From: Microthyrium microscopicum
Lineage: Eukaryota
Length of the DNA: 41,537 nucleotides
Assembly (NCBI GenBank): GCA_010405405.1
Contig: MU004235.1
Span: forward strand, 1,995,539 to 2,037,075
Direction: 5' to 3'
In this document: positions 1 through 40,239 of the stretch, piece after piece
Position numbering within the stretch: the stretch's first letter is position 1
How the letters are laid out: the number at the start of each line of letters is the position of its first letter
Notes under the pieces: generated by a model
Told to the model about the DNA's origin: nothing
The model's input: only the letters and a program-made list of their open reading frames with translations
Database searches by the model: none
Made by a program: the position numbers and the translations under genes

Positions 1-1
1 T

Positions 2-136
2 ACGACTGGTGTGAGCCTATTGGTTTATGATCGCAATGGAGCGGAAGCAGATCCTGATACAAAGTTTCGTTCGGGTTTTATAAGAGAAACCATCACACAT
101 CTTACAGCACCAGTTACAGCTTCCTGTATCGCTTAG
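2..136 (+). CDS. possible 3' end of a gene starting upstream of the window
   Basis: Frame 2 is open from the window edge (TTGVSLLVYDRNGAEADPDTKF...ASCIA) to TAG at 134-136. No family recognised. Confidence 0.25.
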   Translation, partial: TTGVSLLVYDRNGAEADPDTKFRSGFIRETITHLTAPVTASCIA

Positions 137-673
137 TTTTGACATAAAGAGCAAATGGTCACGCCAATTCTGTTTCTAGCTATATCTTTAAAGGGAGCCA
201 TATCTTCAATAAGTTACAAGTGTCTTACTCAAATATATTATCAGATCATTCTTACATTTCGCAGTGATGACCTTTGTGGGCCAGGGGCCAATAGACAGAG
301 GGAGAGAGAGATGCAGTAGGATATGTTCTTCAGCGTTGGGACGATTCATTCTTCACCGCTGATGTAACTGCGAGCATCGTCATGATTTTGCGAGATATGC
401 GTTCTTAACTTTCTGCATCGCCTGGTTTGCTTTCTTGGTCGCCGTTGTACAGGGGCCTACTTTAGTATATAACCTGATGTAAGTGTGGAATCGATATTTA
501 AGATCACAAGACTTTTGCCATAACTGCATCTTGGCAAGATGAAAGTGATAAGAGTCAATGATAATGACAAGCTATATTGGGTCAGTAAGAGAGCATCAGC
601 TCAAGATGTGGCGAATATCTGTCTTGTATGTACTGAGAAGGCATAGTGCTCCACTACTGACCCATCCTCTGCG

Positions 674-1229
674 CTATAGTTTCTTCTTTTCCCCTTCGAA
701 GTTTCCCGTTTTCCCCTTTCTCTTCAAAAGGCGGGCTTGACGAAGGTACACAGAAGCAGCAATGGTGATCTTCACAAAGGGTTCACCTGGCTGCGGCTTT
801 AACTCCTCCACTCTAGCACTTCTGTCACTATGGACTTGCCTTCACGACAAATGTAGATACCTATCCTTCTTCGTTTGGCTTCATGGTCGGGGGCTCGAGC
901 TTGGGGTTCACTTGGAAACTTCCATCTGGTAAAAAGACCCCATATGGCTTGAAAAGCTCCTTTACCAACTGAGACATGCTCGGTGCGTCAGAACATAAGA
1001 ATGTGCCCACCGGGGGCATGCGAAGAGGGGGAATAGGATGAACCCTCGCAGGCAAAGTCTTGCCGGGGTTGTTCTGCATATACACATGTTCGCAGGTGTT
1101 CCAGATTACCTGACATATTTCAATATGTCTAGGCAGTACTACCCGTAATGGGGCAACCGCTGGTTGCTGAAACCGCTGTTGGTTTTGGCTGGGAGTTTGG
1201 CTTGAGTTTTGTGCTGGTAGAGCCGACAT
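674..1229 (-). pseudogene. degenerate array member A0
   Basis: ORF 1229-861 contains FLCSD, resembling the family CSE motif, and stops (TAG) immediately before a GTATCT donor. A candidate intron 860-813 leads to a segment with LCEDHHCCFC in one frame and YLRQARLLKRK...EKKKL* in another, which looks like a frameshifted PLCQDRxCHLLCPYLRA. Confidence 0.45.
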
Positions 1230-1290
1230 GTTCGCTGGTGTTGCAGTGTGGTCTGAAAGAGCTTTGCAAGAGATTTGCTCCAGAGACGAC

Positions 1291-1359
1291 TGTCAATGTC
1301 AGTCCTTGGGTTCGAGATGTAAATTGTCAATGTCGGTCCTTGGGTTCGAGATGTAAATT
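1291..1359. repeat. 34-bp tandem duplication upstream of A0
   Basis: tgtcaatgtc(a/g)gtccttgggttcgagatgtaaat occurs twice with one mismatch. Confidence 0.9.
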
Positions 1360-1809
1360 ATATAAAGAACGTCGAGGATGAGATCTATTCTCAAGATGCT
1401 AAATACCCGAGTACTGTGAAGTTACCTACTGAGTTTCAGTGAATAGATATACCAAAAGCGGGTAGGTGGACAGGCTAGAAGAAACTGATGAGTGACCACA
1501 TGAAGTCACTATTCCCGCTGGATATTTGGTGCGAAATGTTTGTTACTTTAATATTATAGATGAAGACAACATCTGAGGTAGATGAAATGCTTTGAAGAGA
1601 GGTACGTAAGCGCTAAGAAGGCGTTTCATGACTCTCATTTTTATTCCCGAATCCAGTAACGTTGACAAATGACTCGTGAGATCCTCTCATCAATCCCTTT
1701 TGTGTAGCTACCACGCTGAAGGACATTGACCTCAAACTCTGCGCCGTCTCATTTCTAGCTAGTAGCGACTAAGTATTCAAGTACGTTGCGTCGTTGTTCG
1801 AAGGCTCTG

Positions 1810-2197
1810 TTACTTGTGTTCGTCCTCCTCTTCGTCGACAGGTTCCAGCTCATCAATCTTTCTCTTCAGCTTAGCCTGTCTTTTGCCCTCAGCCTTAAGA
1901 TACGGACACAGCAAGCTACAAAAGCGATCTTGGCACAGAGGGCAACCGCGTGGCCAAGGCTTGTCCTCTAGGAAACATGGTTAGATCAAATTCTAATGCT
2001 TAATAGAAGGCAATTGCCTAGTACGCACCTTTCGGTTTTGATGGAATTTGGGAAAGAGACGGCTCGGGATTTCTGGACATGTCCGAAGGAAGTTCTGAGC
2101 AGACAGGGGCACGACGCGGTCTAACTCGGGCACGACGCCGGCTAACTCTAGGCGGAAGAACGGTACGTTTTCGAGCCGTCAATATAGTAAGGACCAT
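1810..2197 (-). CDS. WPRxCPLC-motif small protein A1 (2 exons: 2197-2029, 1967-1810)
   Basis: Phase-1 intron GTGCGT...CTAAC...TAG (61 nt). Product MVLTILTARKRTVLPPRVSRRRARVRPRRAPVCSELPSDM...PKEDKPWPRGCPLCQDRFCSLLCPYLKAEGKRQAKLKRKIDELEPVDEEEDEHK*. TATAAA-like site near 2285. Confidence 0.8.
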
Positions 2198-2587
2198 GTT
2201 GCCTGCAGACTGAAGTTTGGCGACTGAAGTTTGGGCGTATATTGTTGTTGAGGGTGTGAACTTTGCTGTGCAGGGCGGTGAGCTTTATAATCGCAGCTCA
2301 ATGTGGGAAGCGGAACTTGGAAAGGCGATGTTCGAGAGATGATGTTGGAGAAGCGAGGTCAAAGACATCAAAGACATCAAGCGCTCCCGTTTATATAAAT
2401 ACTAGGTTGAGCCAATGGAAGCGGCCCATAATTCAAGTTACAGCAGTAAGCTACCTACCTTCCCGTTAGCATGATTGACGCTCACTGATGCACCTCTTTG
2501 GACTTTTATGCCCGCTTATTGGCCGACTGGCCCTTCTTTACCTTCACCTGCTTGTTTGACGCCACCTCTTTAATTGTAAAAGCCCGC

Positions 2588-2986
2588 TTATTTGAGGTTT
2601 TGCGTTTGATTCCTTTTGTTGTTCTTTGTCACTGTCGCCTTCTTCTTCTGCTCAGCCCTTAGATATGGGCAGAGCAAATGGCAACAGTGGTCCTGGCAGG
2701 GAGGACAGTTTCGCGGCCATGGCTAGGCTTAGACTCTGCCTCTGGCTAAACAATGATGAGATGCGATTCATTGACACAGGGACTAGTACTTACTCTCTGG
2801 CTCCATGGAGTACGAAGATCTTGCCAGAAGTGACTCGGCCCAATCCATAGGCTCTTCAGAACAGAGCGGCACAGGAGGAGGTGGCATTAACCCTGTATTT
2901 TGGAAGAGGACAAGGTAGTTCAAGTGGCTGTTGGCTGAGGTTGTCATATAACTCTGGGGTGTTGAGACATCCTCACAGCTGCTCAT
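2588..2986 (-). pseudogene. WPRxCPLC-motif member A2, probable 1-nt frameshift
   Basis: Exon 1 (ORF 2986-2783, VPLCSEE) ends in a phase-1 GTAAGT donor. The last exon reads AESKP then AAGCCTAGCCATGG, one base short of frame with WPRNCPPCQDHCCHLLCPYLRAEQKKK...LK*. The motif also has substitutions (PPC, HCC). TATATAAAAG at 3031-3040. Confidence 0.65.
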
Positions 2987-3497
2987 GATGGCGAAAATAT
3001 CGCCTTACCTGTTGTTTAGTCCAGCGAAAGCTTTTATATAGCTCAGAATAGACAAAAGAAATTGCAAAAGCGAGCAGTCTAGTGATGCTTGGCGATTTGA
3101 AGTTTCTACATCTAAAATAAAGGTAGACAGAATAGATGGCCCGCTCATTTTGATTGTGATGGAACATCACTCATGGGGATTGGATATTCAGAGACACGAT
3201 GCACTTGAACATTTCAAATTTGACGACTCTAGTTAATGTTATACCCCCTTGGTAGGAATCAAAGGCTCTTCTGTTTTCAACGGACAATGATATCTTATAA
3301 GGTACAACGGGTTACGCCAATTGATTTATACAACGCACCAAGGGCTACCCAGCAATCATTGCCATTCAGTTCTCCACTCAAAGCGTCGTCCCCTTCTGTT
3401 TTGATTTCCAGCCCAAACATAATTGATGCCAACAATTCAGACTTCCATCACCCCCAAATCATTGTGTCAGCTCAGTTTTACAGCTGATCATGATGGT

Positions 3498-3758
3498 CTA
3501 GTTGTCCTCCACATCCGCTTGCTGCGTCTCTTCTTCTTTCACCTTCTTTTCCGCTTGTTTCTTTTCATCTTCTCTCTTTTCCTCTTGTTCTTTGTTCTTC
3601 TCGTTCGCAAGCTTTTCTTCCTCCTCTTTCTTCTTGTTCGCCGCTCTGAGGTATGGGCAGAGGAGGTGGCAGTAACGGTCTTGACATAGTGGACAGTTTC
3701 GCGGCCAGGGCTTGTCTTGTCTTGGTGGGCTCTTTTCTTCGCTCCTGGAGGACGACAT
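3498..3758 (-). CDS. WPRxCPLC-motif small protein A3 (no intron in the CDS)
   Basis: 86-aa ORF with DKPWPRNCPLCQDRYCHLLCPYLRAANKKKEEEEK and a K/E-rich tail. Lacks the CSE segment. Confidence 0.85.
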   Translation of the reverse strand: MSSSRSEEKSPPRQDKPWPRNCPLCQDRYCHLLCPYLRAANKKKEEEEKLANEKNKEQEEKREDEKKQAEKKVKEEETQQADVEDN

Positions 3759-4254
3759 CTTGAGCTTTGCACTGGCTGCTGTGTGTTCGATGTAAAGGTA
3801 TGGTTGCTATGGACAGGAAAAGGTAAGTGGCGGAAAAGAGGATAAAAGGCCTTAAAGCTTAGTAACAATTCCGAGTCTGGAACCTTATGCAGCTTTTTCG
3901 ATAGTTAATCAGGGACTCGGATTTCAAGAGCGGCAGAGTAATTCCTCCTGTTAAATACATCTGTAGCTCAAGATTCCATTTCCCTTAATTGCTACTTTTG
4001 AATACTACCTCTCTCGTGACTTGTTCCTTCGCTTGCTATATATCTGTCATAGATCAGGATATTTAGAACATTCAAGGTCAAATCAGGGAGCTCCCTAATA
4101 TAGAGACTAGAACCTTCAAAGCGAGAAAGTATAGATATAGAAAATCAGTAAGCATTCAAAGCTAACTTCATCACTTGATTCTGTTTAGCGACCACGGGCT
4201 CTACACAATAACTTTCAATTTCCATGCAGCAAAGAGTATCTCACATCTCGAACT

Positions 4255-4837
4255 CTAGGCCTTCTTAGCCTCTTCAGCTGCTGCCTCAACCTCGTTTTCG
4301 AGCACAGTCTTCTCCAACAAGTCAGTGACTTCTTCCACCTTGGCCTTCTCCTCCAACTGAGCCTTCTTTGCGGCCTTCTTTGCAGCCTTCTTTGCGTACT
4401 TCTTTGCCTTCTTCACATTCTCCGGTTTCTTCGCATTCTCGGCCTTCAAGTAGGGACACAAGACATGGCAGACCCGATCCTGGCAGAGCGGGCAATTACG
4501 CGGCCATGGCTCTATATTCGCAGGATGATTAGTCTGTGCTTGATTATTCCAGAGGATCATGATTCTTACTTTCGGGGTTGTTCGTGTCTTGAGCATCAAT
4601 TTGCTCTTCCTCGGACTCATCAAAAATCCACTCAGGGTGCTCCGAGCACGAGTTGGGTGGGAGGCTGAACGGTAAGTAACCCATGAGGGGTGTTTGATTC
4701 TGGAATTGCAAGAAACTGGTGCGAATGCCAAAATGAGGTGTCATGCCACGAAACGGGTGCAGCCATGGGCGGGAAGCAGGATGGTTGCTTGAAATTTGGT
4801 GTCGGACGCCATTTGTCCGATACAAGGTTGGGTCCAT
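4255..4837 (-). CDS. WPRxCPLC-motif small protein A4 (2 exons: 4837-4570, 4511-4255)
   Basis: Phase-1 intron GTAAGA...CTAAT...TAG (58 nt) joins ...PPNSCSEHPEW...NNPE to KPWPRNCPLCQDRVCHVLCPYLKAENAKK, followed by AKKA repeats. Confidence 0.85.
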
Positions 4838-5146
4838 TGGGGATTGCAGCTTTGCGCGAGTTTGTTGAGTTTGCGGATTGTCTGGGTGCGAGAGATAATG
4901 TGATGTTTGCGGTTGTTGGTGGTGAACGCGATGCGGAGATGGATGACGATGCAGAGATGGATGACGATGTTGGGCGCGAAGATAGAGTCGAATGAGCGAG
5001 CTATGGATTAAAACTAGTGACAGTCATGACAAGCGAGTCCCGGATTCAGGTGGTGAAGTCACTTGGACTAGCGGTTTATCATTGAGGTTACAAAAGGATG
5101 TTGCCTTTCCTACCTATCTAATCAAATGGAAATCGACACCTCAAGT

Positions 5147-5846
5147 TTAAGCCTTCTCGATGTCTTGTTCCTCATCCCCGTCCTTCTCCGTCTCTCCCCC
5201 CTTTTTTGCCTTTTTCTTAGCCTTCAGATATGGACATAGTAGGTGACAAAATCGATCCTGGCAGAGAGGGCAGTCGCGTGGCCAGATCTTCTCCGGTTTA
5301 TCTAAGCGCATTAACGACGCTGGTATCATAATGTAGCACAATTTACTAACCTTCTGCTGGTGGAGGTGATGGATTCACTCGTACAAAAGCTGAAGTTAAA
5401 GGATTGAACCACCAATTTTCGTTTTCGGGGGAGTTCCAAAATTGTGAACAAACGGGAGGACGATTGGCGACATACCCTATCAGAATGTTAGCTCAGATTA
5501 TGGATCGTTAAACGGTATAGATGACGTGGCTCTATGATCCTCCCCAAGCTCTTCACCCGAGGTGCTAGTAGGAGCCATAGAAACCAATAGTGACACGTCA
5601 TTTACTTTGCAAGTCAACGTTGTTGGGGAGAGGTATGCGAGCAGAATGGTGCTTACATCTGGCTATGGCTAGATGATAGTCGTAGGATGCATGCTGGAAG
5701 AAGTTGTTCGGCCGAATGGATGCTCTGTGGGCTGCAAGGCGTCGTTGTTTGTCCTCGTTATTCTTCTGTCTCTCTCTAGATTCTTTCAGCCGCTGGACAT
5801 GTCCATTAGTCTGGTCGAGATGTTTGGATTCACTACGAAGGCGCAT
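5147..5846 (-). CDS. WPRxCPLC-motif small protein A5 (3 exons: 5846-5606, 5476-5351, 5301-5147)
   Basis: Two phase-1 introns (GTAAAT...CTAAC...TAG; GTTAGT...TAG). Product MRLRSESK...RYVANRPPVCSQFW...EDKPEKIWPRDCPLCQDRFCHLLCPYLKAKKKAKK...*. Confidence 0.8.
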
Positions 5847-5890
5847 TTTGCGTATCGATGGCGACTGGCGGAGGTAGGAGGGGAGTGGAT

Positions 5891-5960
5891 GACGATGGGT
5901 TTTGTCTGTGTATTAGGTAGGACGATGGGTTTTGTCTGTGTAGGTATTAGGTAGGACGAC
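5891..5960. repeat. ~30-bp tandem duplication upstream of A5
   Basis: gacgatgggttttgtctgtgta...ttaggtag occurs twice. Confidence 0.85.
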
Positions 5961-6236
5961 AAGAATTGTTTTATAGGCGTGAAGTGTGGCAAATATCAAT
6001 AAATAGCGAAAGAGCGACCCGCTAGCCGCCCAGCACTTACCTTATTGCGACCGCAAGCTTGATATCGCTTTCTAAATTAGGAAGTATTCAACAAGGCGAA
6101 TAGGCATCGACTCTCGCCCACTCAGAAATGGAAGGAGCAATAGTCACACCCAAGGCAATCTATCAGACGATATAGAATTATAGCCGATTTCATAAGAAGA
6201 CCGCCAACTGGCTGGGTAGCACCAGCACATCAAAGC

Positions 6237-6919
6237 CTACACATTTTCCGCCTTTGCCTGTTCCTCTTCCTCGCGCTCCTTGGTTTCCTGTTCCTTCTTC
6301 TTCTCCGCCAGCAAATATGGGCATAGCAGATGACAGAATCGGTCTTGGCACAAAGGACAATCTCGAGGCCAAACTTCAACCTCGACTTCTGTAAATCTGT
6401 TAGCAACGTCTAGTGATTGACTAGACATCAGAACAATCTGACCCTTCTTTTCCGTCTCAAACACAAGCGGCGGTGGCGACCACAGCGACAAATTATGCGG
6501 CTCACGGACAAGAGTCATGTAATCCTTAAGGACTCTATTCAACAAGTGATATTGGGTGTATTCACGCCATCCCCCTTCAGAGCAACTTTGGCCAGGTGCG
6601 GGACGGGCTATAAAGACCATTAGTTCCGATTTCGTGGACAAGACAGCACAGGAGACCCACGGGTTGATGCGTTATATAGCTCACGCATTCTAGCTAACAT
6701 AAGCGTGCGCCGCGCAGTGTATTGCGAAGCTTGGAAAGCACGAAGTCTTCTGGAACGAGGATCCGCAGCTGGTTGAAATTCCTGGGAAGCACGAAGTCTT
6801 CTGGAACGAGAATCAGCTGCTGGTTGTGATTCCTGGGAAGCACGAAGTCTTCCAAGGCGTCCTTGGCGAGCTGTTGGATGGTGCAACGAAGACCCGCGTG
6901 TAGTATAATCAGGGCGCAT
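6237..6919 (-). CDS. WPRxCPLC-motif small protein A6 (3 exons: 6919-6661, 6607-6443, 6388-6237)
   Basis: Phase-1 introns GTGGGT...CTAAT...TAG (53 nt) and GTCAGA...CTAAC...CAG (54 nt, frame-preserving). Product MRPDY...(RRLRASQE)x3...PAPGQSCSEGGW...PPLVFETEKKEVEVEVWPRDCPLCQDRFCHLLCPYLLAEKKKEQ... Confidence 0.8.
6732..6855. repeat. in-frame tandem repeat (about 2.5-3 units) in A6 exon 1
   Basis: gaagcacgaagtcttc recurs three times and encodes RRLRASQE(S/F)QPAAD(S/P)RS-like units. Confidence 0.85.
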
Positions 6920-7210
6920 TTTCGCGAATTGGGCAACGTAGGCTGTGAGCGCGCAGAATGTATTGTGTGGACAAAAGAGTTTAGATCAATGGCTGTAGGC
7001 GGTGGGTGGAAGAAGTGGAGGATGAATTGAACGAAGCAGAGGAAGTGAGAAGCTTAAAGAAGAACAATCTCAGAGGTTGGAGGACGAGACCAGGAACTAC
7101 AGGTGACAGAACGTGTTAGGTAGGCGTCACGGCTCCTGTTCCCTTGAGCGACTCGAGGCAAGTTTTGAGCGAATTGTTGGCAACATGTCAGATGGAAGTA
7201 GCTTTTCACC

Positions 7211-7866
7211 TCATATGTCCTCCTGTTCCTTCATTTCGTCGCTGTCATCCATGGTATTCTGCTCCGATTCGTTTTCCTGCTCCGATTCGTTTTCCTGTTC
7301 CTCTTGCTTCTCCTTCGCCTTCCGCTTCTCACTAGCTCTGAGATACGGACACAGTAAATGACAAACTCGATCCTGGCAAAGTGGACAATCCCGCGGCCAA
7401 ATTTCAACTTTGTCTTCTAAGATTTGTTAGTATCGCCTTATGACTCCGAACATGAGCATAAGCTCACCCTTCTTGTCCGTCTCAAACACTAGCGGTAGTG
7501 GCGTTTTCTGAAAATACGAGATTCGCGCCTCATCGAGGAGAGCAAACTTCTCATTAAGCATGTCCATTTGGAGGTCGCGAGATGATTTCCCATGGGAACA
7601 AGATTGGGGGTTGGTCTGATGCCCTAGATAAACCGTCAGCTTAGGTTCAGTGAAAGCACAAGAGACTTACAAGCCAACCACTGATCCATTTCACTGAATC
7701 TGTCCCGCAGGCATCTTCGGAGTGCTGCCCGCCGTGCTGCGTTATGCGCTTGAAGTCTTCTGAGACGACGAGCTAGGTTGGGTGTTGGGTTGCGCTTAAA
7801 CTCATCGTCTAGGGCATCTGTCGGATGGCGGAATGGCGACGTGCTTGTGTTGGAATCACGGCGCAT
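7211..7866 (-). CDS. WPRxCPLC-motif small protein A7 (3 exons: 7866-7671, 7623-7468, 7416-7211)
   Basis: Phase-1 introns GTAAGT...CTGAC...TAG and GTGAGC...CTAAC...TAG. Product MRRDS...LARRLRRLQAHNAARRAALRRC...WHQTNPQSCSHG...PLPLVFETDKKEDKVEIWPRDCPLCQDRVCHLLCPYLRASEKRKAKE...EDI*. Confidence 0.85.
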
Positions 7867-7984
7867 TTTTGGATATGAACCGTTCCGCGTTATTTAGTAG
7901 AAGTAAGACTCTCCGAGAGGATCTGCGGTGCGCAAGAAAGAACAAAGTTGGTAAGGATGGCGGGTAGTGGTGGAATGAGATGAA

Positions 7985-8050
7985 GATGGACAGATTCAGA
8001 GGGCGAAAGGTAGAAAAGATGGACAGATTCAGAGGGCGAAAGGTAGAAAG
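7985..8050. repeat. 33-bp tandem duplication upstream of A7
   Basis: agatggacagattcagagggcgaaaggtagaaa occurs twice. Confidence 0.9.
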
Positions 8051-8226
8051 GCGTAAACAAGCTGGCACAGACGAAGACGGCAAGAGCAATGCGAAATAGG
8101 ACTTATTCGCTTTTTTGAGGTGACGCACCGGGAGTGAATGGGAGGACCGGATTTCAAGCAAGATATTGGACCAGAGCTGTTTTTGATCAATTGTAATGAA
8201 AAGTTTCTTATTGTTCTGCTTGCTTT

Positions 8227-8732
8227 TCACAGGCCGCTACTCTTAAAGTTCTGCTCCTCTTCGTCTTCTTGTGCCTCCTCAGCTTTCTGCTTCTCACTAG
8301 CTTTCAGATATGGGCATAGTAAGTGACAGAACTTTGTCTGACACAATGGACAATCCCTAGGCCACGGCTTCTCCCCTTTCTCCTTCTCTGACTATCATTA
8401 GCACCGATAGTCTTTTTCAATTCAATAAAAGCACGTACTGCCCCAAGCATGGTCAAAAGATTCCACGAAGGTATCCAAAATATCATCGAGGTCGTCTAAG
8501 GAGGTTACTCTGAATGTGGGACGCTCAGAGCAGAATGTTCTGCCCGGGTTGACTGCTTAGCATGTCAGCTTAGTCCTGTCAATTAAACTTTGTTTACGAG
8601 GGGGATATGACCGATAGTTCCTTGAGCGTTGATGATGCTCGCGGTCAAGGCTTGCAGTTGTTGCGAGAAAGCTTGGATGCTTTGGTTGACAGCGATCCAA
8701 TTTCGAGGAGGCTGGTGTGGTGGGTTTTGCAT
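8227..8732 (-). CDS. WPRxCPLC-motif small protein A8 (exons 8552-8439 and 8387-8227; exon 1 from ~8732, donor uncertain)
   Basis: Phase-1 intron GTACGT...CTAAT...CAG joins NPGRTFCSERP...DHAWG to KKEKGEKPWPRDCPLCQTKFCHLLCPYLKASEKQK...GL*. The best exon-1 donor (GTAAAC) is phase 0; only a weak GTCATA donor gives phase 1. Confidence 0.7.
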
Positions 8733-9012
8733 TTTGGCGAGAGTTATGTTTTGTTGGCGGTTCGAAGGAAGACTGATGGAACGTGGCGGGAGAGACAGAT
8801 GGTGTCGAAGCTGTGGGGTATTTGGTGATGGTAAAGTTGGATTTACTTGAAGCTCATGAGGTGGCCATAAAGCCATTGAGATGCAAACAACGTTGGAGCT
8901 AATAATCATGGGAGCCGTGATATGAAGCAACTTGATAGACTGCCACCGCGACGACAACAATATATCGCGATTTCTATCATCCCATGTACATTTAGCAGTA
9001 TCAGCTCAATGT

Positions 9013-9669
9013 CTACATTCTATCGACCTTCTTTCCAGCCTTGGCTTTTCGTCCCTTTTCGACAACCTGCCACTCTCCTCGCTTGACTTCCTCTTCATAC
9101 TTCCATTTCGCCTCACGCTCCATTCGCTCCGCTCGCATCCGTGCTTCTTCGCGCTTCTGCTCCTCCTCATGTTTCTGTTCCTCAGCCCGCTTGTTCGCCG
9201 CCCTCAAGTACGGACACAACAAGCTGCACACGCTCACCTGGCATAGCGGGCAGTCTCTAGGCCATGGTGTTTCGGACTCTTTCGGCTTTTCCTCTTCTAT
9301 CTTCTCCTGGTCTAGTGAAAGTTAGCATCGCTTTGGTCTGATATAGGAGAAAATACGTACAGTTTTTCGTGGAGCGAAAAGGGAAAAAATACATGAGCAA
9401 ACGATCAGAGTAGGCACCAAACGAGGCAGTCGACATTTCTGAACAATTGACATGGCGGTTCGCCTGACGCCCTATCGACTTGTTAGTTAGACTGCCGATT
9501 TGTACTGGGTTGAACGGCCTTTACAGTTGACAACGCCCTGAAGCTGCAGTTGTCTGATTGCTGCCAATGCATTCCTTCGATTTGACACCCACAAGTCGGT
9601 CGCGGCCAGACGTCGTGCTTTGCGCTGCACCTCCTCAAGGCTTTTGCGCCCTTTGCGACTTTTTGGCAT
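9013..9669 (-). CDS. WPRxCPLC-motif small protein A9 (3 exons: 9669-9525, 9471-9361, 9311-9013)
   Basis: Phase-1 introns GTAAAG...CTAAC...TAG and GTACGT...CTAAC...TAG. Product MPKSRKGRKSLEEVQRKARRL...WRQANRHVNCSEM...ETPWPRDCPLCQVSVCSLLCPYLRAANKRAEEQKHEEE...*. Confidence 0.85.
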
Positions 9670-10129
9670 GTTCGCAAGTGTTGTATGTAGTTTGCTTGAT
9701 AAGAGTATTGAATGGTAGGCTTGAAGACTGTCTCGCCTGCAGATGGAGAGGAGGTAGTGAAGTTGAAGTTGTGGAGGACCAGCAGAGGTCGAGTATGAGC
9801 AACTAGTACTCGAGACAAGTGAACACTTCTCGCTGTCTGAGATCGAGCAACTGCTTGTTTTGGCACCAGGATATGATTGCCTGAGGGCCGAAGTCTTGAG
9901 CAGGTGAGATAACATTTCGGCTGAAGTATCACCCCCAATGTGGAAATATGAAGAAGCAGACTCGACACCAAGCAAGGCAGGCAAGGCAGGTCCAACCCAC
10001 TCCCAAGAAGAGACGCAATAAACGAAGACAGAAAGACAAAAAGATAGATAACAGAAAGAATGAACAGCTCTATAGATTACATGTACACGAGCATCTAATC
10101 TACTACATTAGTACCTCTAAAGACCAGCA

Positions 10130-12418
10130 TTACCTTGAATCGCAATATCCCGGCGGTTTCGTCGAATGGCCCGTAACCCAGCTCTTCACCGTCAACGACG
10201 TAGTATACACCATGCCCACGATACCAAATATTATTAGCACGATGTCCGCCAGCCTTTGCTGCCAGGTTTTTGAGACAGCTCTATAGTGTAGCATTGGCTA
10301 TGAAAGCATTTAGCAGGAGGAAAAATCATGTAGCGGAGGGGGGGTGGAAAGACTTACGGGATAGATATAGACAAGCGGAATACAAGCAAAGCTGCCCACC
10401 AGCGCCACAAATTTGTCGAGATCATCAGCGCCGATCCACGCTATCAGTGCACATAGCACCACCATGAAGAATCGATATACGTTTTTGATCCATTTCGTCT
10501 TCTGACTCACACGGCCTGATCGTGCGCGCTTGAAGATGAACTTGGACGTAATCTCAATCGCCGGGAAAAATTGCAGCGGCGTGGAAAGCAAGATGGCCAA
10601 CGAGTAGATGAACTGCACCGCATTGACGAACTTATTGTCCTGTGGCATGTTGAGAATGACGACAGTTTTCGTTTTTGATCCAAAGGCTGCGTAGGATAGC
10701 GCGCCCATGCTGGTGAAGATTATGGTGATTATGATCATCACGAAGCCAAGCACCGGTGGGAACTTGCGGGGCTGCGCCATGGATTCTTGGATGGGGATGA
10801 TAAGGCCGATTCCTTCGAAGGTGAAGATGGCGGTGCCAATGAAAAGTGTCCAGTCCTTGGGGTTGAAGAGGGCGATGTCGGAGACTCCGTGGTTTCCGAC
10901 GAGTGTTATAATGTCGTAGTAATACAGATACAAGAGACCAAGGAGGATGAAAACGTCAGCGACGATGGCAATTTTCTGGATGTTTTGGATGTTTCGATAC
11001 AGTGAGAGCGGGAGGAAGATGACCATTTGCATGAGAATGAGGTATGTGATGCTGATCTCTGTCTTGCAGTTCGTGACAGCGAGGATGAATGCTTGTAAGT
11101 TTTCAGAAACGAAGACTATGTAAGCGGAGGAAAAGCCGATTTGGCTTATGACGAGGGAAAAGTTGATGAGTGTACGCATAGGTCTTCCATACAGTTGATA
11201 TCCCATGCCTCCGAACGAAGCTGGAATGGCAATCCTGGTGGATACGAGAAGGAGGAAGCAGTAGTAGCTGAGTGAGGCGACAAAAAGAAGGACTAGACTA
11301 CTGAACAACATGCCGCCGTTGAGAAAGGCCTTGGGGAGGAAGAGAACGCCAGTTCCAACAAAGGATTTGAGAAGGAGGAGGGTAGCTCCCTTAGGACTGG
11401 CACCATGCTTAACTTCTTTTCTCTTCTTACGCCGCTTGCCTGGAGAGCCAAGAAGAGCAGTATCTTCAGTTGGTTCCTCGTCTTCTCTTGGTGTGTCTGA
11501 TGTGAGATAGTCGTCTGTGTCATCAATCTCGTCGTCCAACTCCTCACCGGCAAAGTGACCATAAAGACTAAGAAATTCGAGGAAGCTGGTGGTCAGGATC
11601 TGTGGCTGCTGTGGTTGAGTCGAAGAACTCGACTCGCCAATGCCTGTTCTACTACTAGGTGATGGACTGGGCGCAGTTCTTCGAATATAATTTCTTCGAA
11701 ATCCTCCAGGCTGCTTGATGGAGTTGATATTGAGAGTCTCTTCTTGTGCGGTAGGGCGATCCATGGTGAATGATTTCCGTCTAGTAGAATGTGCTTCAGC
11801 ATCTTGTTGCTCAACAAATCGATATATCGGACGAGTAACATCACCCCCCTGTAGTCTTAGACTAGAAAACTCGTCCTCGTCGAGACCTGGAGCAACGCTT
11901 TCAGTATCAAGTTGTCCAGCTCCGTTTCTACCAGGACTGCTAGATATCGGGCCAGCAAGATGTCTTTTGACGACCTCGAGGTCATCTTTGAGAAAGCTAG
12001 GGTTTCCCGTTGCCGGATCGAATGAACCATGGTGAGCACCAGTCCCGCTGTGGGCCTGCGAAACTGGCGACATTGCCCGGATTGGGGGAGTACCCGCAAA
12101 CCGAGGAGGACTGTTGGCAGAGCCTCTTAAAGCTGCAGCCAAAGCAGATTCACCCCGGCCGACCGATGGAGAAGGTCCCTTGCTCTTATCCGCACCTTCC
12201 AGGGGCGTAGTATGAGATTCGGCGTCATGATCTTGTAATTGTTGTGGGGTGGGTATCTGGCGAACTGGAGGGGTCCCAACGAAGGAGGCAGGTACTGGGG
12301 AGCCAAGACGAGCTATTGAAGCGGCTCGGATATGAGCATGAGAACCAGCGGGAGAAGAGTCTCTACGAAAAGACGTGGATGGGACGGGCTGCGGGGACGA
12401 TTGGCGTGGACTGGACAT
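10130..12418 (-). CDS. AVT3: vacuolar amino acid transporter, AAAP/Aa_trans family (Avt3/Avt4-type); intron 10298-10357
   Basis: Long disordered N-terminus with LQGGDVTRPIY, PGGFRR and FLEFLSLYGHFAGE, then LLKSFVGTGVLFLPKAFLNGG and FTFEGIGLIIPI. The last exon is PMLHYRAV...PPGYCDSR*. Confidence 0.9.
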
Positions 12419-13009
12419 GTTGGAGGGTAGCTAGATGAAAAGAAAGAATGGCAGTGAGGAGAATGAGTGCAGGACGAGTGTAGAAAGACTATGAAGTAGC
12501 ATAGAGAAGTGTCGAGTAGAGATTTCACAGCATCACGAGCAGTGGTTTTGGAGATCAGCTGGGCATCAGTGGCTGGAGGCCGTTCAAGGTACTCTTGTAA
12601 GGGCGAGCGAGTGTTGTGGGGGGGTGAAGGCCTTGTTGCAGAGCTTGCCTACAGTTGTGAGCTTGTGAGCTGCAAAGGATTCTGATCCTGGATCCTGGGA
12701 ATCAACTCCACGTGCGCCACCAATTTTCCATGTGGTGGCCATGCAGCTAACGCCACAACTACCACTTGACTCCTTTTCGAGAATCATACAACTTCGACAT
12801 AAGACAAGTTGGTCTAAGAAATGCAGTTTTTTGAGCAATGCTACTAAAGGCCTGATGAATTCCTTGAAGGGAGAACTTGAACAAAGCAAATACATCTGTG
12901 CCGATGAAAGAGGCCGCAGAGCAGGAATCCCAATACTGTTCTGTTGAACAAGTAGAGCAAGTAGTCATCGAAGTCGCGATTCCAGGCTGAGGGCTGTAAT
13001 TGCGTTTGA

Positions 13010-14144
13010 GAAGTACTAGATAGCATAGCAGACCAGCGCTATCATGCATACCTCAGTGCCGCAAGATCAACCTCCGATGCCCTTGTTGCGTACATCAACG
13101 TCCATGGAAAAGTTGCTACCCAAACTCTTCCATTTCGAACAAATACTAACATAATCAGTAGCTCAGCAGGCACTGCTACATTAGATCACCCCAGCGATCT
13201 TCGATCAACTGCGAATACATCCACTGTAAAGGACATCTCCGCCCAAACAATTAGCCCAGGCACTCCAAACAATCTAGCAGACTTTCAGCCAACGCCAGGC
13301 TCTCACGATAAAAGTGCCATCCTTGAGGATCAACAAAAAGCTATCTACAAAGAATGTACCAGTACTGCCCACGACGATAAATGGAACATCCGCCGCTTTG
13401 AGCAATTATCCTTCATCAGCCTATACAACACGCATCTCGAAATCATGACCCTCGAGGCCGAAATTGATGACACAAAAGGAGTCATGCCACAAAAGACTCA
13501 AGAACGATTACGGAATCTGTTGCAAAGTTATAGCGAAGCAGTACGAAACATTGAGTACATGACAAAATTTCCCACCCTGCGATTCGATCTAGCATTCAAT
13601 CGAAGCAACACTCTATTCCCCTGTGTGCAGCCGAAGATGGCCGACAGCTTTGACTACTGCAACTTTCGTCCTGCATCGTTGGCCGTTGATCAGGTACGGA
13701 GCTTTCTCCAAAAGATTTTGCCGCAGAAGCTCGTACTTGGCGATGCGTCGTTATTTTATAAATTGTATAAGCGCAGAGCTAATGGTAACTACTCTTTCTC
13801 CCTCTCTCTGTTGAACCTTGTTGTCGCCAAATACTGAATCAGCTGACCGAATTACTTCAGAGGTACCAAGGCCGAAACAGCTATCGCCAATAGTTGATGG
13901 GTTCGCACGAATCATTGTGGCCATAACAGGAGGAGTATTTCTGCTTGTTCCAATGATTATCATGACTTGGGTGACGAATGCTCATATTCGATTGATAATT
14001 GTGTCAGTGGCAGTATTGTGGTTTGCAATCTCGATTGCGGTGACTAGCAAGGCGACAAATCAAGAGCTAATGGGGGCAACCGCTGCGTATACTGCCGTCT
14101 TGGTCGTGTATATAGGCACTACGAGCAGCTCCACAGGCAATTGA
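13010..14144 (+). CDS. DUF6594-like fungal membrane protein (5' end uncertain; intron 13785-13842)
   Basis: Frame is open from ~13010 with RRFEQLS...LRNLLQSYSEAV. The C-terminal 3-TM block FLLVPMIIM...ATNQELMGATAAYTAVLVVYIG matches my recollection of DUF6594 proteins. Confidence 0.7.
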
Positions 14145-21655: not shown

Positions 21656-22955
21656 TGTGTGTGATGGAGAAGAAAGAGGAGGATATGCGAAAGGCGTTGG
21701 AATGAAGAGGATTCAACTAAGACAAGAAGAAGAAAAGTTCAAGCTGTTGGAGGACTCGAGGTTAGCAAAAAGTTGATGGAAAAGGTGTTGGTTATGAAGA
21801 TGAGCTAGACGTACAAATACAACACCGGTAGTTGGTGAAGTAGTGAAGAGGGAGACTTGCAGTGAAGCTCGAGGAAGGATGAGGGAAAGAGAGTGAAAGT
21901 GGTGAGAGATGGCAAGAGAGAAAAGGTGAAGAAGGAGCACCCGACGATTAAATTGTATAGCGGCTTCCCGTTGTGGAAGAGAACAGAGTTTCGGCCACTT
22001 GTTCAATCGCTGGTCCCCAGTCTGTGCAGGAGCGATGTTGAGCCCCTTCCCAATTATTTCCACGCTAACCGCATCCAAAAAGTTCCACCGTGGCTCTTTC
22101 CCTTGAGCTACACCCCTGATCCCTGTCAAAGATGATTGCCCCTGCCCCGCCACAACATCTGTCCACAAAACCACTCGCCACTTCCTATTTCGGTTGAGAT
22201 CGTTCATTGTTCACTCTTCACAAAAAGACATGCCATGAAACCGTTATTATTGAATGCAGGTGATCATCATAACCTGAGAACATTGTATTCATCAGCTATT
22301 GAAAACCTAGCAGTAACAACCATATAGCCGAGACTAAGTAACGCAGTACACAGAGCCTCATATGCACCTTTACAGCCCGCGCACGCACTGCGCCATCTAC
22401 AACCTATCTGTATATCCAACCAAACATGAAACTCTTATAACCTTCAACGTATTATTAAACATTTAAAACATCGTTGCTGCAGGTACTTCCGAGTCATACT
22501 GTATGCACGCGCTCGCCGTGCCACAGGCGGACCAGAACAAAGGAAACAAATCTGGCCGCAAAGAGGAGCCAATAACTTGCTGAGAACGCCGATGACCCTG
22601 GCTGATTTGCTTTGCCCACTTTCGACGTCTACATAGGTATTCTGTTTGCAGTCATTTATTTCGCCGCTAAGAACACATATTTGTGGAATTCAACAGGATA
22701 TCAAATTGTGGATATGAATAGTATGAAGCTGGGTTAGCAATGATTGCGATATCATCACGTAGTAGAGTAGCATAAGATTGGTTCGTTAATGCAATCAATA
22801 TTGATGCGCGTCTTCGCGAATGGGTTTTTGAGTGTATAATCACGATAGTATTGCTGTTCATACCAATACTACTTCTAGGTATCAATCCCCCATTTTCATC
22901 AACTTCTTCATTTCTATTCATACCCAATTCCTTCTAGCCCATCCCCTCCCACCAA

Positions 22956-31517: not shown

Positions 31518-32806
31518 ATGGATGATTCCAAGGACGATAAGACCCCTATTTCCTCAGTTCATCCTATTCACGCACATCCCGTGGCCGCGACAACGACAAG
31601 ACAAGATAATGGCCATCCCTTACGAACCAGCTCTTTGATGCTTGCCATTCGAGCATGTCAAATAGTAGTGACTATTGCAGCTATTGCTACCAATGCAACT
31701 GATTTCTCAGCCTGGCACTCCAACGAATGCTCGGCTCCAGTTAAACTCGATTACAACGTTTCCATAGTACGCATATCTAATCCAGCAGTCGCCACGATGC
31801 TCTTGTGCTAATTCTGTCCAGGCAGCTCTATCTTTCCCCGTGCTCGCATATCTCATCCTAAACTCTGGATCCCTAGAAGCCAAATTTCGCTTTCTGCCAT
31901 GGCACCACCTCGCCCAAGCTGCAACAGACATTTTCATCACTGGTCTATGGATTGCGGCCGCCGCACTGTGGTCCGTCGACTTTACTTGCGATGAATTGTG
32001 CAATTTATGTGTGAGTTTTGGCATCGATAATGGGGGCAGCGCTGGTTTCCATCTACCATCGGCAATTGATCCCAATGAATACTGTTTTTGCACCTGGAAA
32101 AGCGACAACTCCAAACGAAGTCTTTCGAGGGGACACATACTCATGTCACGGGCGTCCCATATTGATACGCTCAGTGCGAGTGGGAAGAGTGCCAAAACAG
32201 CGGCGAAATCGACGACGAAGCTTGGGCTCGATTGGATTATGGTGTACGTATATTCTTTCGAATGCGACTTGTCTAGGGGAAATGCTGACGTTGGACAAAT
32301 CTAGTGTATTGTCTGGATTAGCTCTGATCCTAGGAATCGTTATCATACTGAGAGCCCGACGCGCTCAGAAGAACCCGCCGCCCAAAATTGAAATAGAGGC
32401 CAAGACAGAGATAGGGCCACGCCAGGAACGACCCATACCTCAATCAAACTACAGTTCGCACCGAGAGCGGCCATATAGCTACACCCAATACTCGACGTCG
32501 ATGGACTCAGCTGGTTCTAATGTGACTACTGCAGGAAATCAGAGTCCAGCGCCGGCGTACTATCAATCAATACAGGCTACTCAGCAGGCGATATCAATGC
32601 AGACACTGGCAGGCCTAGTGCCGCAGCCAAACGGATCTTCAGATGCACAGGGCGCGCCGGTCTATTCATCTACGATCGCCTCACCAGCATCACAGCCAAG
32701 GATGGGATATGGACGTCAGCAGGCGGGTTGTCGGCCCATGCGATATTCGGCTTCACATTCTACTCTTGGGTCTACCTTTTCCATTCCGGAGGAATCTGTT
32801 CGATAG
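31518..32806 (+). CDS. 4-TM membrane protein with Cys-rich loop and S/Q/P-rich tail (MARVEL-like topology); introns 31767-31821, 32244-32304
   Basis: Three ORFs join via GTACGC...CAG and GTACGT...TAG. Four hydrophobic segments, with a CDELCNLC...YCFC loop between TM3 and TM4. Confidence 0.7.
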
Positions 32807-33055: not shown

Positions 33056-35241
33056 CTAGGCTTGAAACTTTCCGACATTCTCCATCAAGGGATCCACTGG
33101 ACATGCGCTCAAGGCGTTGGCATGTTTCTCCAAGAGATTCCACAAAACCCAATCCTTTCTCTCCATGTGACGATAGTCGTCACGGTTTGCCTTTGCTGCA
33201 TCGATGCGATCAGTTTGATGTCGACAAAGAAGCAGGTTTTTGCCGTTATACCGTCCGTCGAAAGAGAAGTCGCCGTACGCAAGGATTTGAAGTGATGGAA
33301 TGCCGTTAGGTCCAAACGCCCAGTTGGCAAACTCGTGGAAAGCCTTGACTGGTCGAGGATGTCCGTTCTTGTCAAAGTCTTGGTCTCCACTGCCCTCGCG
33401 CATGGCTTCCGGGGTTAGCTCATATGGATCGAATGAAGGGTCATCTACTGGTGTGAGGTCTGTGAGTGTGCCCGCACCTTTCGCACCGATGCTGGGAAGC
33501 ACTCTTAGATCTCGGCCTGATTGGCGAAGATGTAGAACCTTGAGAGATGTGGATTTGGTGAATGGGTGAACACGCATTTTCTAGATTCGAATGTTAGCGC
33601 TTTGATCAGTTTACAAACAGGCTTCAAACTTACCAGGAGCTCGACATCGCAGCATAGACCAAAGAATTCCAAGTCGTGCCCAATCAATTTGTCTTCCCAT
33701 TTACCAATGCGCCAATTGAATCTGGTATAACCGCCTCTCATATTGACGAGATCACACTCCTCGTCTGTCCAAAGAGGATTCGACTTGTCATATCGATCCG
33801 AAAGGCGCATTCTTTGGTGGAAAACGTAGCTTCTCAAAGTCGATTTGTGGTGCTCAGTGAACTTCCAATCCTCCGTCCAAACAATATCATCGGAAATGCT
33901 TAGGAAAAGCTCCTCTAGGCCCTCAAATTTCTCCAGAAATGTTAACAAGTAGAAGCGAAGTGACGGTTGCCCTTGAACTGTCTGTTGGTAGTCCCATTGG
34001 ATTTCCAAGGTTTTAAGCTGTATAGATTGTTTTGCTTCGATGACCGCAATCAGCAGGTTTTCCCAGCCGTGGCATCGTCTTACTTTCAAAGTGCAGAGAC
34101 ATTCGATGTTAAGCGAGGATACAAAATCTCTCGATCGCTGGCACCATCCAGGTCCTGGTCGCGCCAACTCCATGTTTGACAACGAGAGCACGTTGAGATT
34201 AGGAAATTGCAATTGCAATCCTCCACCCACAGGACATCTGATGAGTAGCAGAGTATGACGATCAAGGCGATTAAAGTGGAATCGCCGCATCAAATCGTCA
34301 GTCCATTCAGTGTCTGGGCGTTGATCGAGACTCCAACCCATCGGTTCAAGTACCAGTTTCCTCAGCTGCGGCGCTGCATTGTTCAGCATATAGCCAAGGG
34401 ACACAATATCTCTAGTAGAGCGATAGCCTTTCCACGAGAGTTCTTTGAGTGATTTGAACTGGGACCCTTGATGTTCAATCTTGTAAATTGATCCTTGGTA
34501 GAAGATATTACTTGTGACCAGTTCCAAGCTTTCAATAGTGGACTGCTCGTTAGCAAGGTGGCCATCGCTGCCTAGTATCTCCCAGAGGACTGGAGTGCCA
34601 ATGTTGTTCCAGCTGTCACTGCATTAGTACTCACCGTAATAAGGTAGTTTATGGTTGTTTAGACTTACGTGAATTTCTTCAAATGGTTCTTCTTGAAGCG
34701 TTGCAGCGTACGCCAAATATTCAGGTCTAATTTCTCATCTGAGATTGGGCCACAACGGTTGCTGAATGTTTCTGCCGTCCAAAAAGAAATCTCATTGTGA
34801 TATAGAGATGTAACTTCGAACGACACGATCTTCTCAAAAGCGCACTCTTCATTTGCAAGAAGCGGCTGGAATTTCAAAGTCTCGACATTATATAACTTTA
34901 GTGCGTTGGACTTGTGGAGGATATATAGATTGGCGAGCCGGTTGAAATCTTTTGAGACAGCACAGAGGCTTAAGACATCTTGGCGGCGAGGGATCTGTAA
35001 CTGTCAGTCCAGATATCGAAACATAGAACGCAGATAGTAGAGGAACAAGATAAATCTTAGTTGCGTCAGACCGGCCAGCGCTGTTGCTACCAGCATAGCA
35101 GTCGATATTAGCCAATATAGACGTTACTGATATCGAAGCTGATAGGCGCACACCATGTATCTTGTTCACTAACGAAATTCGTGTACTTACCAGCTCAATG
35201 GCCATTAGCAGAAGCTCGTCAGGCAGCCCAATGATCGACAT
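33056..35241 (-). CDS. F-box domain protein with LRR-like C-terminal region (exons 35241-35191, 34994-34669, 34612-33634, 33580-33056)
   Basis: Spliced N-terminus LPDELLLMAIELIPRRQDVLSLCAVSKDFNRLA fits the F-box pattern. Downstream LKELSW, LRKLVL, LNVLSLSN, LEELFL units and WAFGPNGIPSLQILAYGDFS. Confidence 0.78.
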
Positions 35242-35638
35242 TGTGATTGTAGGGCGCGAAAGATCGCACTTGTAGTCAAGTAATGCAGGACGTAGTGTGG
35301 TAGTGGTTCAGATAGAGTGGATTGTTAGATGGATCAAGGTCGAAGGTGAGGGAAAAAGTGCGGAGAATCATGTGCCGGCTAGACTTGTGCCACATTTTCG
35401 AGGTACTGTTTGCATTTATAGTGCCGATGGAACTGCGAAGATCTGATATGGCTGAGCTAGCGGTTCGACGAAGAAGGTTAGTGGGATATGGGTATCAAAG
35501 GCAGGCACTAGACACCACGATTTCCGGTGCTCCTTCCAAGGTTCTTCGTAGCTCTTGCCGTTGTGCGGTCATGCTTTCTACACCTCACCAACATGGCCTT
35601 GATCTCTTGGTCTTATACAGCCCAAGAATCGCCTTAAT

Positions 35639-37179: not shown

Positions 37180-37764
37180 NNNNNNNNNNNNNNNNNNNNN
37201 NNNNNNNNNNNNNNNNNNNNNNNNNNNNNNNNNNNNNNNNNNNNNNNNNNNNNNNNNNNNNNNNNNNNNNNNNNNNNNNNNNNNNNNNNNNNNNNNNNNN
37301 NNNNNNNNNNNNNNNNNNNNNNNNNNNNNNNNNNNNNNNNNNNNNNNNNNNNNNNNNNNNNNNNNNNNNNNNNNNNNNNNNNNNNNNNNNNNNNNNNNNN
37401 NNNNNNNNNNNNNNNNNNNNNNNNNNNNNNNNNNNNNNNNNNNNNNNNNNNNNNNNNNNNNNNNNNNNNNNNNNNNNNNNNNNNNNNNNNNNNNNNNNNN
37501 NNNNNNNNNNNNNNNNNNNNNNNNNNNNNNNNNNNNNNNNNNNNNNNNNNNNNNNNNNNNNNNNNNNNNNNNNNNNNNNNNNNNNNNNNNNNNNNNNNNN
37601 NNNNNNNNNNNNNNNNNNNNNNNNNNNNNNNNNNNNNNNNNNNNNNNNNNNNNNNNNNNNNNNNNNNNNNNNNNNNNNNNNNNNNNNNNNNNNNNNNNNN
37701 NNNNNNNNNNNNNNNNNNNNNNNNNNNNNNNNNNNNNNNNNNNNNNNNNNNNNNNNNNNNNNNN
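37180..37764. other. assembly gap (585 N)
   Basis: Run of N. Confidence 1.
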
Positions 37765-39969: not shown

Positions 39970-40215
39970 CTAGATAAGAAAATCTAAATAGATAGTCTTA
40001 TAGAGCGTATTTAATATAGTATAAAACTATATTAACTTTATCTTAAAGTTATAGTATAACTAAATAATAAAAATAATTATTATTTTTATAAAAATAATAA
40101 TTAATAACTTATTAAGGCTAGATAAGAGAATCTAAATAGATAGTCTTATAGAGCGTATAAAATATAGTATAAAACTATATCTATTTTATCTTATAGCTAT
40201 AATATAACTATAAAA
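39970..40215. repeat. ~90-bp direct repeat upstream of the hAT transposase
   Basis: ctagataaga(a/g)aatctaaatagatagtcttatagagcgtat... at ~39970 and ~40119. Confidence 0.85.
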
Positions 40216-40239
40216 TAAAATTAATTCCCTTTAATTCTC

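Follow-up and report, generated by a model that had tools for sequence, protein, structure and literature searches.

We found that a stretch of Microthyrium microscopicum DNA (41,537 nucleotides, contig MU004235.1 of assembly GCA_010405405.1, positions 1,995,539 to 2,037,075; hereafter the window) carries a tandem array of small genes whose proteins share a near-invariant segment of 22 residues with four cysteines, and that these array units are transcribed, spliced genes. The shared segment, or module, is under strong purifying selection on the protein. M. microscopicum is a leaf-litter fungus of the order Microthyriales (Dothideomycetes). We propose that the proteins form a soluble, lineage-restricted family in which a constant Cys4 metal-binding knuckle caps a charged helix, the N-terminus evolves fast and a common partner is docked, a reading that, taken as a package, we regard as evenly balanced between right and wrong. 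We consider the existence of a selected protein family as such far more secure than the package, and the identity of the metal as zinc less secure than it.

In a six-frame search of the window, the pattern W.R.C..C.{4}C...C matched exactly nine times, always on the minus strand (W codons starting at 1956, 2719, 3707, 4506, 5284, 6371, 7399, 8364 and 9264, with 763-1087 bases between successive motifs), while none of 200 mononucleotide shuffles of bases 1-37000 contained any match. The consensus of the 22 residues is W-P-R-x-C-P-L-C-Q-x3-C-x-L-L-C-P-Y-L-x-A, and 14 columns (W, P, R, C, P, C, Q, C, L, C, P, Y, L and A) were invariant in the alignment of all nine motif exons. In every copy the motif is followed by a tail rich in lysine and glutamate (K/E-rich), commonly opening with a basic cluster. 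The original prediction, made from the sequence alone, had described nine head-to-tail minus-strand units ending in this motif and tail, and its limits were exact, as the first unit (U1) has its stop codon at position 1810 and the ninth (U9) its ATG at position 9669. Nine was an undercount of the family, which has at least 17 motif copies and a relic, U0, with seven members lying left of the window, and the prediction had missed a second motif, P-x(2-5)-C-S-E, as well as the decay of U0 and U2. Nor is the array as hidden as had been claimed: at least six of the nine units (U1, U3, U5, U6, U8 and U9) are already represented in public databases as hypothetical proteins; for U4 and U7, no public protein was recovered in profile and word-index searches. 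Our gene models are as follows (aa, amino acids; ORF, open reading frame; P numbers denote public proteins).

674..1228, minus strand: U0, decayed tenth unit, read from ORF 861-1292, a three-frame reading and DNA alignment to U1-U4.
1810..2197, minus strand: U1 gene, 108 aa; exons 2197-2029 and 1967-1810; motif 1956-1891; based on RNA joint 1967/2029 and a model; sequence identical to P0006.
2588..2986, minus strand: U2, probable pseudogene; exon 1 ORF with LCSEEP; motif exon 2722-2588.
3498..3758, minus strand: U3 gene, single-exon short form, 86 aa; motif 3707-3642; equals P0004.
4255..4837, minus strand: U4 gene, 174 aa; exons 4837-4570 and 4511-4255; motif 4506-4441; RNA joint 4511/4570.
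5147..5846, minus strand: U5 gene, 156 aa; exons 5846-5657, 5476-5351 and 5301-5147; motif 5284-5219; equals P0002.
6237..6919, minus strand: U6 gene, 191 aa; exons 6919-6661, 6607-6443 and 6388-6237; motif 6371-6306; RNA joints 6388/6443 and 6607/6661; P0001 identical.
7211..7866, minus strand: U7 gene, 185 aa; exons 7866-7671, 7623-7468 and 7416-7211; motif 7399-7334; RNA joint 7416/7468, with intron 1 predicted from GTAAGT...TAG only.
8227..8732, minus strand: U8 gene, 131 aa, ATG at 8732; exons 8732-8612, 8552-8439 and 8387-8227; motif 8364-8299; RNA joints 8387/8439 and 8552/8612; public counterpart P0005.
9013..9669, minus strand: U9 gene, 184 aa, ATG at 9669; exons 9669-9525, 9471-9361 and 9311-9013; motif 9264-9199; RNA joints 9311/9361 and 9470/9524 (cut +1); public counterpart P0007.

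The public gene models P0001, P0002, P0005, P0006 and P0007 agree with ours over the shared parts, and P0004 is U3. Two of them start further upstream than the ATG that matches the paralog starts: P0005 (U8) begins at 8876, 48 codons upstream (8733-8876), and P0007 (U9) at 9915, 82 codons upstream (9670-9915).

Evidence for transcription came from cDNA contigs of one public run, the kind of which was guessed, mapped to bases 1-14000; contigs from a single run give neither expression levels nor transcript ends. Within this region they skip 12 short segments, all with canonical intron ends: nine in the array, one in the neighbouring transporter gene, which served as a control, and two in a plus-strand gene at about 13.1-13.9 kb. 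Nine of the 13 predicted array introns are bridged, in six units (one each in U1, U4 and U7, two each in U6, U8 and U9), with GT..AG ends on the minus strand; the U3 contig terminates with adaptor at 3790. Predicted introns with no bridging contig are that of U2, both of U5 and the first of U7. Contig cover is absent over bins 1-1401 (U0) and 5138-6071 (U5), and no joint is among those listed for U2 or for U7 intron 1, which is evidence neither way. A lack of spliced transcripts had been named beforehand as an argument against functional genes, and the spliced contigs remove it. A single contig of 4091 bases (8219-12544) spans U8, U9 and the transporter gene with all five introns removed; it could represent same-strand overlapping or read-through transcripts, or an assembly merge.

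Intron positions and phases are conserved across the array. The last intron, which precedes the motif exon, is in phase 1 in all seven spliced units with in-frame models, and intron 1 is in phase 1 in U5-U9 (in U9 only with the +1 cut of its joint), 8-11 codons ahead of the cysteine of a C-S pair described below. The first reading of the sequence had introns splitting the motif in most units; instead, all 22 motif codons lie within a single exon in each of the nine units, with the intron 1-16 codons upstream. Because the intron precedes the motif and does not split it, what it detaches from the rest of the gene is a short last exon that has no ATG.

Codon usage argues that the motif is kept at the protein level. 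Across the 22 motif codons, pairwise identity was 79%, 88% and 39% at codon positions 1, 2 and 3, respectively; the invariant arginine is encoded by all six codons and the motif leucines by four to six codons each. Estimated by the Nei-Gojobori method (NG86), synonymous divergence (dS) of the motif was saturated and not computable in 33 of 36 pairs, at a mean nonsynonymous divergence (dN) of 0.14. Since synonymous sites are saturated, the conservation of the motif reflects an old, protein-level selection, and gene conversion and recent duplication are ruled out as its cause. These data also bear on the reading that the array is non-functional and consists of transcribed relics of a repeat or mobile element. 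Two of the ten units are decaying, the protein products are putative, and an AT-rich block with signs of repeat-induced point mutation (RIP) lies in the same window, which would suit such relics; but amino-acid identity of the motif has been kept despite saturated synonymous sites, intron positions and phases are conserved with splicing confirmed, and across the array the RIP indices (0.72 and 1.32) are in the normal range and do not differ from those of its flanks. We consider this explanation extremely improbable.

The remainder of the proteins diverges much faster. In the closest pair, U6-U7, dN was 0.10 in the motif, 0.61 in the pre-motif part and 0.68 in the tail, with a pre-motif dS of about 0.97. 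N-terminal similarity gave z scores of 12.7 for U6-U7, 5.3 for U5-U6 and 6.3 for P0003-P0011, and below 4 for every other pair. A variable N-terminus joined to a constant C-terminal module, as originally described, thus fits the motif alignment, the N-terminal z scores and the U6-U7 dN, whereas the accompanying statement that the rest of the proteins is barely alignable is true of most pairs and fails for these neighbours. As only neighbours retain N-terminal similarity, the array appears to have grown by local tandem duplication. Other copies are decaying. U2 has a deviant motif (CPPCQDHCC), and neither the sequence read nor the model gave a canonical in-frame GT-AG join of its exon 1 to the motif exon, for which reasons it is probably a pseudogene. 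U0 is a probable pseudogene on its sequence: its upstream ORF retains FLCSDAPS, with the C-S pair, and its motif exon aligns with the DNA of U1-U4, but the W-P-R codons are lost and a 1-base gap has put the two halves of the motif exon in different frames. The decay of U0 and U2 indicates birth and death of copies within the family. Part of the variation in protein length arises by repeat slippage: U6 exon 1 contains an in-frame tandem repeat (6732-6852, a 51-base unit x2.4) that encodes an arginine-rich peptide repeat, the U4 tail contains in-frame 12/24-base repeat units (4360-4413), and the U7 tail an in-frame 18-base unit x2.4 (7259-7301). Perfect or near-perfect direct repeats of 33 and 34 bases, in two copies each, sit directly upstream of the start codons of U7 (7983-8049) and U0 (1291-1359). 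No 8-mer was common to more than two of the nine upstream regions when these were searched for promoter words.

Ahead of the module lies a second conserved element, P-x(2-5)-C-S-E, in which a C-S pair, usually C-S-E, follows a proline by two to five residues, 31 to 56 residues ahead of the first module cysteine. It is present in eight of the nine window units, in relic U0 and, by reading, in all seven members outside the window; the single-exon U3 is without it. The N-termini are often arginine-rich, with a pre-motif net charge of up to +10 in U1 and U6. The proteins are without secretion or membrane signals, as had been noted at the outset: in a crude Kyte-Doolittle test of 18 sequences no hydrophobic stretch of the transmembrane or signal-peptide kind was found (19-mer maxima <=1.27), and the N-terminal 10-mer maximum was <=1.22 in all 18.

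This last result weighs against the possibility that the genes encode modified-peptide precursors or secreted effector-like proteins, with the invariant segment as core peptide or recognition site. Many small tandem genes with one invariant cysteine-rich segment, often followed by basic pairs, are what such a system might look like. Secreted fungal peptide precursors of the ustiloxin/dikaritin type have a signal peptide, several core repeats and adjoining tailoring-enzyme genes, but here none of the 18 sequences had a signal peptide by the crude test, each in-window gene has one motif and no repeats of it, and no tailoring-enzyme family was found in the 22 flanking ORFs, which hold housekeeping genes (the left part of the array lies outside the window). 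Lineage-specific tandem clusters of small, fast-evolving fungal genes, such as effector clusters, do exist, and the present array resembles them in local duplication, rapid divergence, birth and death and the lack of homologues outside the lineage; it differs in having no signal peptide, in its near-invariant 22-residue segment and in being set amid housekeeping genes, not in a compartment rich in repeats. A precursor or effector role therefore seems very improbable to us.

AlphaFold2 models built with a 13-member alignment had low overall confidence (P0001: predicted local distance difference test score (pLDDT) 67.5, predicted template modelling score (pTM) 0.32; P0008: 63.1 and 0.27) and contained a confident long helix directly after the fourth cysteine (residues 165-190 of P0001, pLDDT 81-95; residues 136-150 of P0008). 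A search of the models with Foldseek against the PDB gave no match at E<=10, and the best VIA-align match among 48,161 chains (Z 4.6) concerned generic long helices over residues 28-97 and barely covered the motif. In the ESM Atlas, neither the whole of P0001 nor its residues 141-176 yielded a usable feature match, and structure matches (TM<=0.51) were to short helices. A two-chain model of P0001 residues 140-191 with two zinc ions, built without an alignment and without controls, scored 0.00 and 0.00, which counts neither for nor against a dimer.

The family was delimited with a 37-position profile built from the nine motif segments and searched with HMMER against 1,835,955,588 representative proteins (of about 15 billion). 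Among 14 matches at E<=1e-3, 13 carry the motif; 12 of these are named hypothetical proteins of M. microscopicum and the thirteenth is U3 itself. All 13 members are encoded on one contig of 2,506,003 bases (accessions KAF2669592 to KAF2669609). The fourteenth match, P0014 (605 aa, E 6.9e-4), has nine L-L-C-P-Y-like repeats but is of low complexity and without the W-P-R-x-C-P-x-C half; we discarded it as a false match. Seven members (P0003 and P0008-P0013) are not encoded in the window and have accession numbers that precede that of U1, indicating that the array continues past the left window edge; the gene models KAF2669596-598, 603/604 and 607 lay outside the examined set. The total given above counts P0003 with two copies: this protein (KAF2669594) contains a full motif and, at its extreme end, a truncated further copy, as if the gene caller had joined two adjacent units of the array. 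Two word-index searches, over 5.8 billion clusters, yielded the same family only (two of three and 10 of 7358 candidates). From metagenome contigs, 150 stretches matched the pattern and two passed tblastn; both were rejected as chance, as they lie on contigs of 58-59% GC and share W-P-R-N-C-P-L-C only, without the L-L-C-P-Y-L half. The exhaustive protein search thus returned no homologue outside one lineage, the defining property of an orphan family, and in this respect the lineage-specific family that had been postulated was recovered as such. None of six motif strings occurred in the literature searched, none of the species-naming papers among the matches listed concerned this protein family, and a generic search of the orphan-gene literature gave nothing relevant among the matches listed. 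Haridas et al. 2020 (PMC7082219) has two passages that name the genus or the order.

The original prediction had not recognised the family, and comparison with known families did not change this: Pfam gave no family at cut-off, whether the nine units were queried as motif exons or as trimmed segments, nor did it for the 13 public proteins, and the PDB sequence and fold searches gave no significant match. On sequence comparison this is a new cysteine-motif family without detectable relatives; the type itself, small proteins with a Cys4 module encoded by a tandem array confined to one lineage, varies themes that are already known. The weak, sub-threshold Pfam matches (zf-HIT, zf-CRD, Fer4_17, Fer4_18 and Redoxin) are mainly to cysteine motifs that bind zinc or iron-sulphur clusters. 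Redoxin (PF08534) was matched by two of the nine segments (best E 0.19, below the level of membership), and no thioredoxin fold was seen in the AlphaFold2 models, in which the proteins are helical or coil.

By score, the nearest zinc-binding similarity is to the HIT finger. Such a finger binds two zinc ions through eight Cys/His ligands, among them a C-x2-C at the N-terminal end and a His/Cys pair at the C-terminal end. The best of 177,635 PDB sequences was the yeast Hit1 zinc finger 2n95, over C-P-x-C...C-S-x2-C, and zf-HIT (PF04438) and Redoxin are the sole Pfam families matched by more than one motif segment (for zf-HIT two of nine at E<=10, best E 0.049; none of the 13 full proteins at E<=0.1). 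The likeness lies in the central C-P-x-C-x4-C-[S/H]-x2-C, after which come an aromatic residue and a run of basic ones. The module could accordingly be a cut-down HIT finger that keeps C-P-x-C-x4-C-[SH]-x2-C, completes its metal sites between chains and docks on HIT partners. Neither score is significant, though: the alignment to Hit1, in which the central C-P-x-C ... C-S-x2-C string is found, has an E value of 0.37, and the score listed for U1 (12.7 bits, E 0.11) reaches about half the gathering threshold of 24.7 bits. Neither the first C-x2-C pair nor the terminal His/Cys pair of such a finger is present: the module has four conserved cysteines, with no conserved His/Cys after the fourth and only one conserved cysteine upstream (that of C-S-E). 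W-P-R and L-L-C-P-Y-L are not HIT features. With only four of the eight ligands present, HIT-finger membership fails, and we think derivation from such a finger improbable.

The retroviral-type CCHC zinc knuckle (PF00098, C-x2-C-x4-H-x4-C) offers a parallel in spacing. Four ligands fall within 13-14 residues, the first two spacings are equal, and small proteins with basic flanks are also found among nucleic-acid-binding knuckle proteins; in contrast, the third ligand is here a cysteine and not a histidine, the last spacing is three and not four, and there is one copy per protein, followed by a long K/E helix. PF00098 was not listed for any of the nine segments at E<=10, a level at which the HMMER filters drop most weak matches, and membership is not supported.

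A third possibility is that an iron-sulphur cluster or haem occupies the module, which would then sense or buffer redox state, iron or haem, with the C-S-E cysteine as an extra ligand and the two invariant Cys-Pro pairs as binding sites. Ferredoxins have the pattern C-x2-C-x2-C-x3-C-P, and Cys-Pro is known as a haem-regulatory motif. The module resembles both in its cysteine cluster ending in C-P and in two C-P dipeptides that are unchanged across the 13 public members; the conserved cysteines number five rather than four, and weak matches were obtained to Fer4_17 (PF13534, E 0.025) and Fer4_18 (PF13746, E 0.012-0.017), in one member each. These scores are far under the gathering cut-offs (15.5 versus 22.2 bits and 15.8 versus 27 bits), the spacing C-x2-C-x4-C-x3-C differs from that of ferredoxins, the motif is single, and U3 is transcribed yet lacks the fifth cysteine. 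We regard iron-sulphur or haem binding as unlikely, while taking it more seriously than the HIT derivation.

Our preferred reading, the metal-binding knuckle on a charged helix, can be set out as follows. The ancestral gene would have had three exons, and the array would have grown by local duplication with birth and death. Exon 1 would encode a part that evolves fast, is helical or disordered and is often rich in arginine; exon 2 would start just ahead of P-x(2-5)-C-S-E, and exon 3 would encode the invariant four-cysteine module and the K/E-rich tail. From the cysteine spacing (C-x2-C-x4-C-x3-C, 13 residues, knuckle-like) we infer that the four cysteines bind one metal, most likely zinc, and the metal knuckle may cap the long charged helix that both models start after the fourth cysteine. 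The module probably contacts one common partner, because the non-ligand W, P, R, Q and P-Y-L are equally invariant; this could be a nucleic acid or a conserved protein, and because basic clusters occur on both flanks, a nucleic acid or nuclear partner is suggested, at a docking site that is probably nuclear. Specificity would differ from paralog to paralog through the variable N-terminus.

Several points weigh against this proposal. Metal binding, localisation, partner and translation are all putative, and no zinc-finger family reaches threshold. The cysteine segment is coil at a pLDDT of about 50-60 in both AlphaFold2 models. The invariance of W, P, R, Q and P-Y-L exceeds the needs of metal ligation, and a one-zinc site leaves the fifth conserved cysteine (C-S-E) unexplained, with the expressed U3 lacking it. 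Judged by its two invariant Cys-Pro pairs and its final C-P, the module could equally be a haem or iron-sulphur motif. Finally, absence from other fungi was judged on predicted proteins only, among which small intron-bearing genes are easily missed, and we know of no other sequenced member of the order Microthyriales.

A more far-reaching version, which we consider a long shot, is that the module is a new cofactor-binding mini-domain that plugs into one conserved machine, while the N-termini constitute an intracellular recognition repertoire. The array may then be a fungal set of adaptors or decoys for non-self recognition, for defence against mycoviruses or mobile elements or for another genetic conflict, and may have been kept by birth-and-death evolution in a long-separate lineage. 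Adaptors or decoys, genetic-conflict or non-self genes and stage-specific nucleic-acid-binding proteins had been the conjectural roles named in the original prediction.

By their Pfam matches, the genes flanking the array (22 ORFs scanned) are of the housekeeping type and not a biosynthetic cluster: they encode an Aa_trans transporter, an SLC12-type transporter, an Hsp70, exportin-T, eIF2-gamma and an esterase. The adjacent transporter had been named AVT3, and membership of the Aa_trans family is as much of that name as the match bears out. Long ORFs with no Pfam match at E<=0.01 are located at 13010-13860 (plus strand), 21713-22210 (minus), 32015-32806 (plus), 33505-34623 (minus) and 34888-35307 (minus); the first of these is spliced and expressed (joints 13111/13162 and 13783/13860). 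Beyond a run of N at 37180-37764, the window ends in an AT-rich block (37765-41537, GC 0.20) with a RIP-like signature (TpA/ApT 1.54, (CpA+TpG)/(ApC+GpT) 0.13), against about 0.65-0.85 and 1.2-1.3, respectively, in the rest of the window including the array. This block is probably a RIP-degraded repeat at an assembly gap.

As M. microscopicum is neither a model organism nor a pathogen, the immediate impact of these findings is moderate. The family is easily testable, given a short module, gene expression in culture and an array (about 20 kb or more) that could be removed in a single deletion, and the locus is a compact test case for the roles of orphan families and for a constant module set against variable partner regions in a tandem array. 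The analysis defines a new cysteine motif, with zinc as the candidate cofactor. It is unusual for a segment of 22 residues to be near-invariant in at least 16 paralogs with saturated synonymous sites and absent elsewhere in about 15 billion predicted proteins, and this conservation, together with the restriction to one lineage, speaks for a function that is old and under strong selection in an order of fungi that has hardly been studied.

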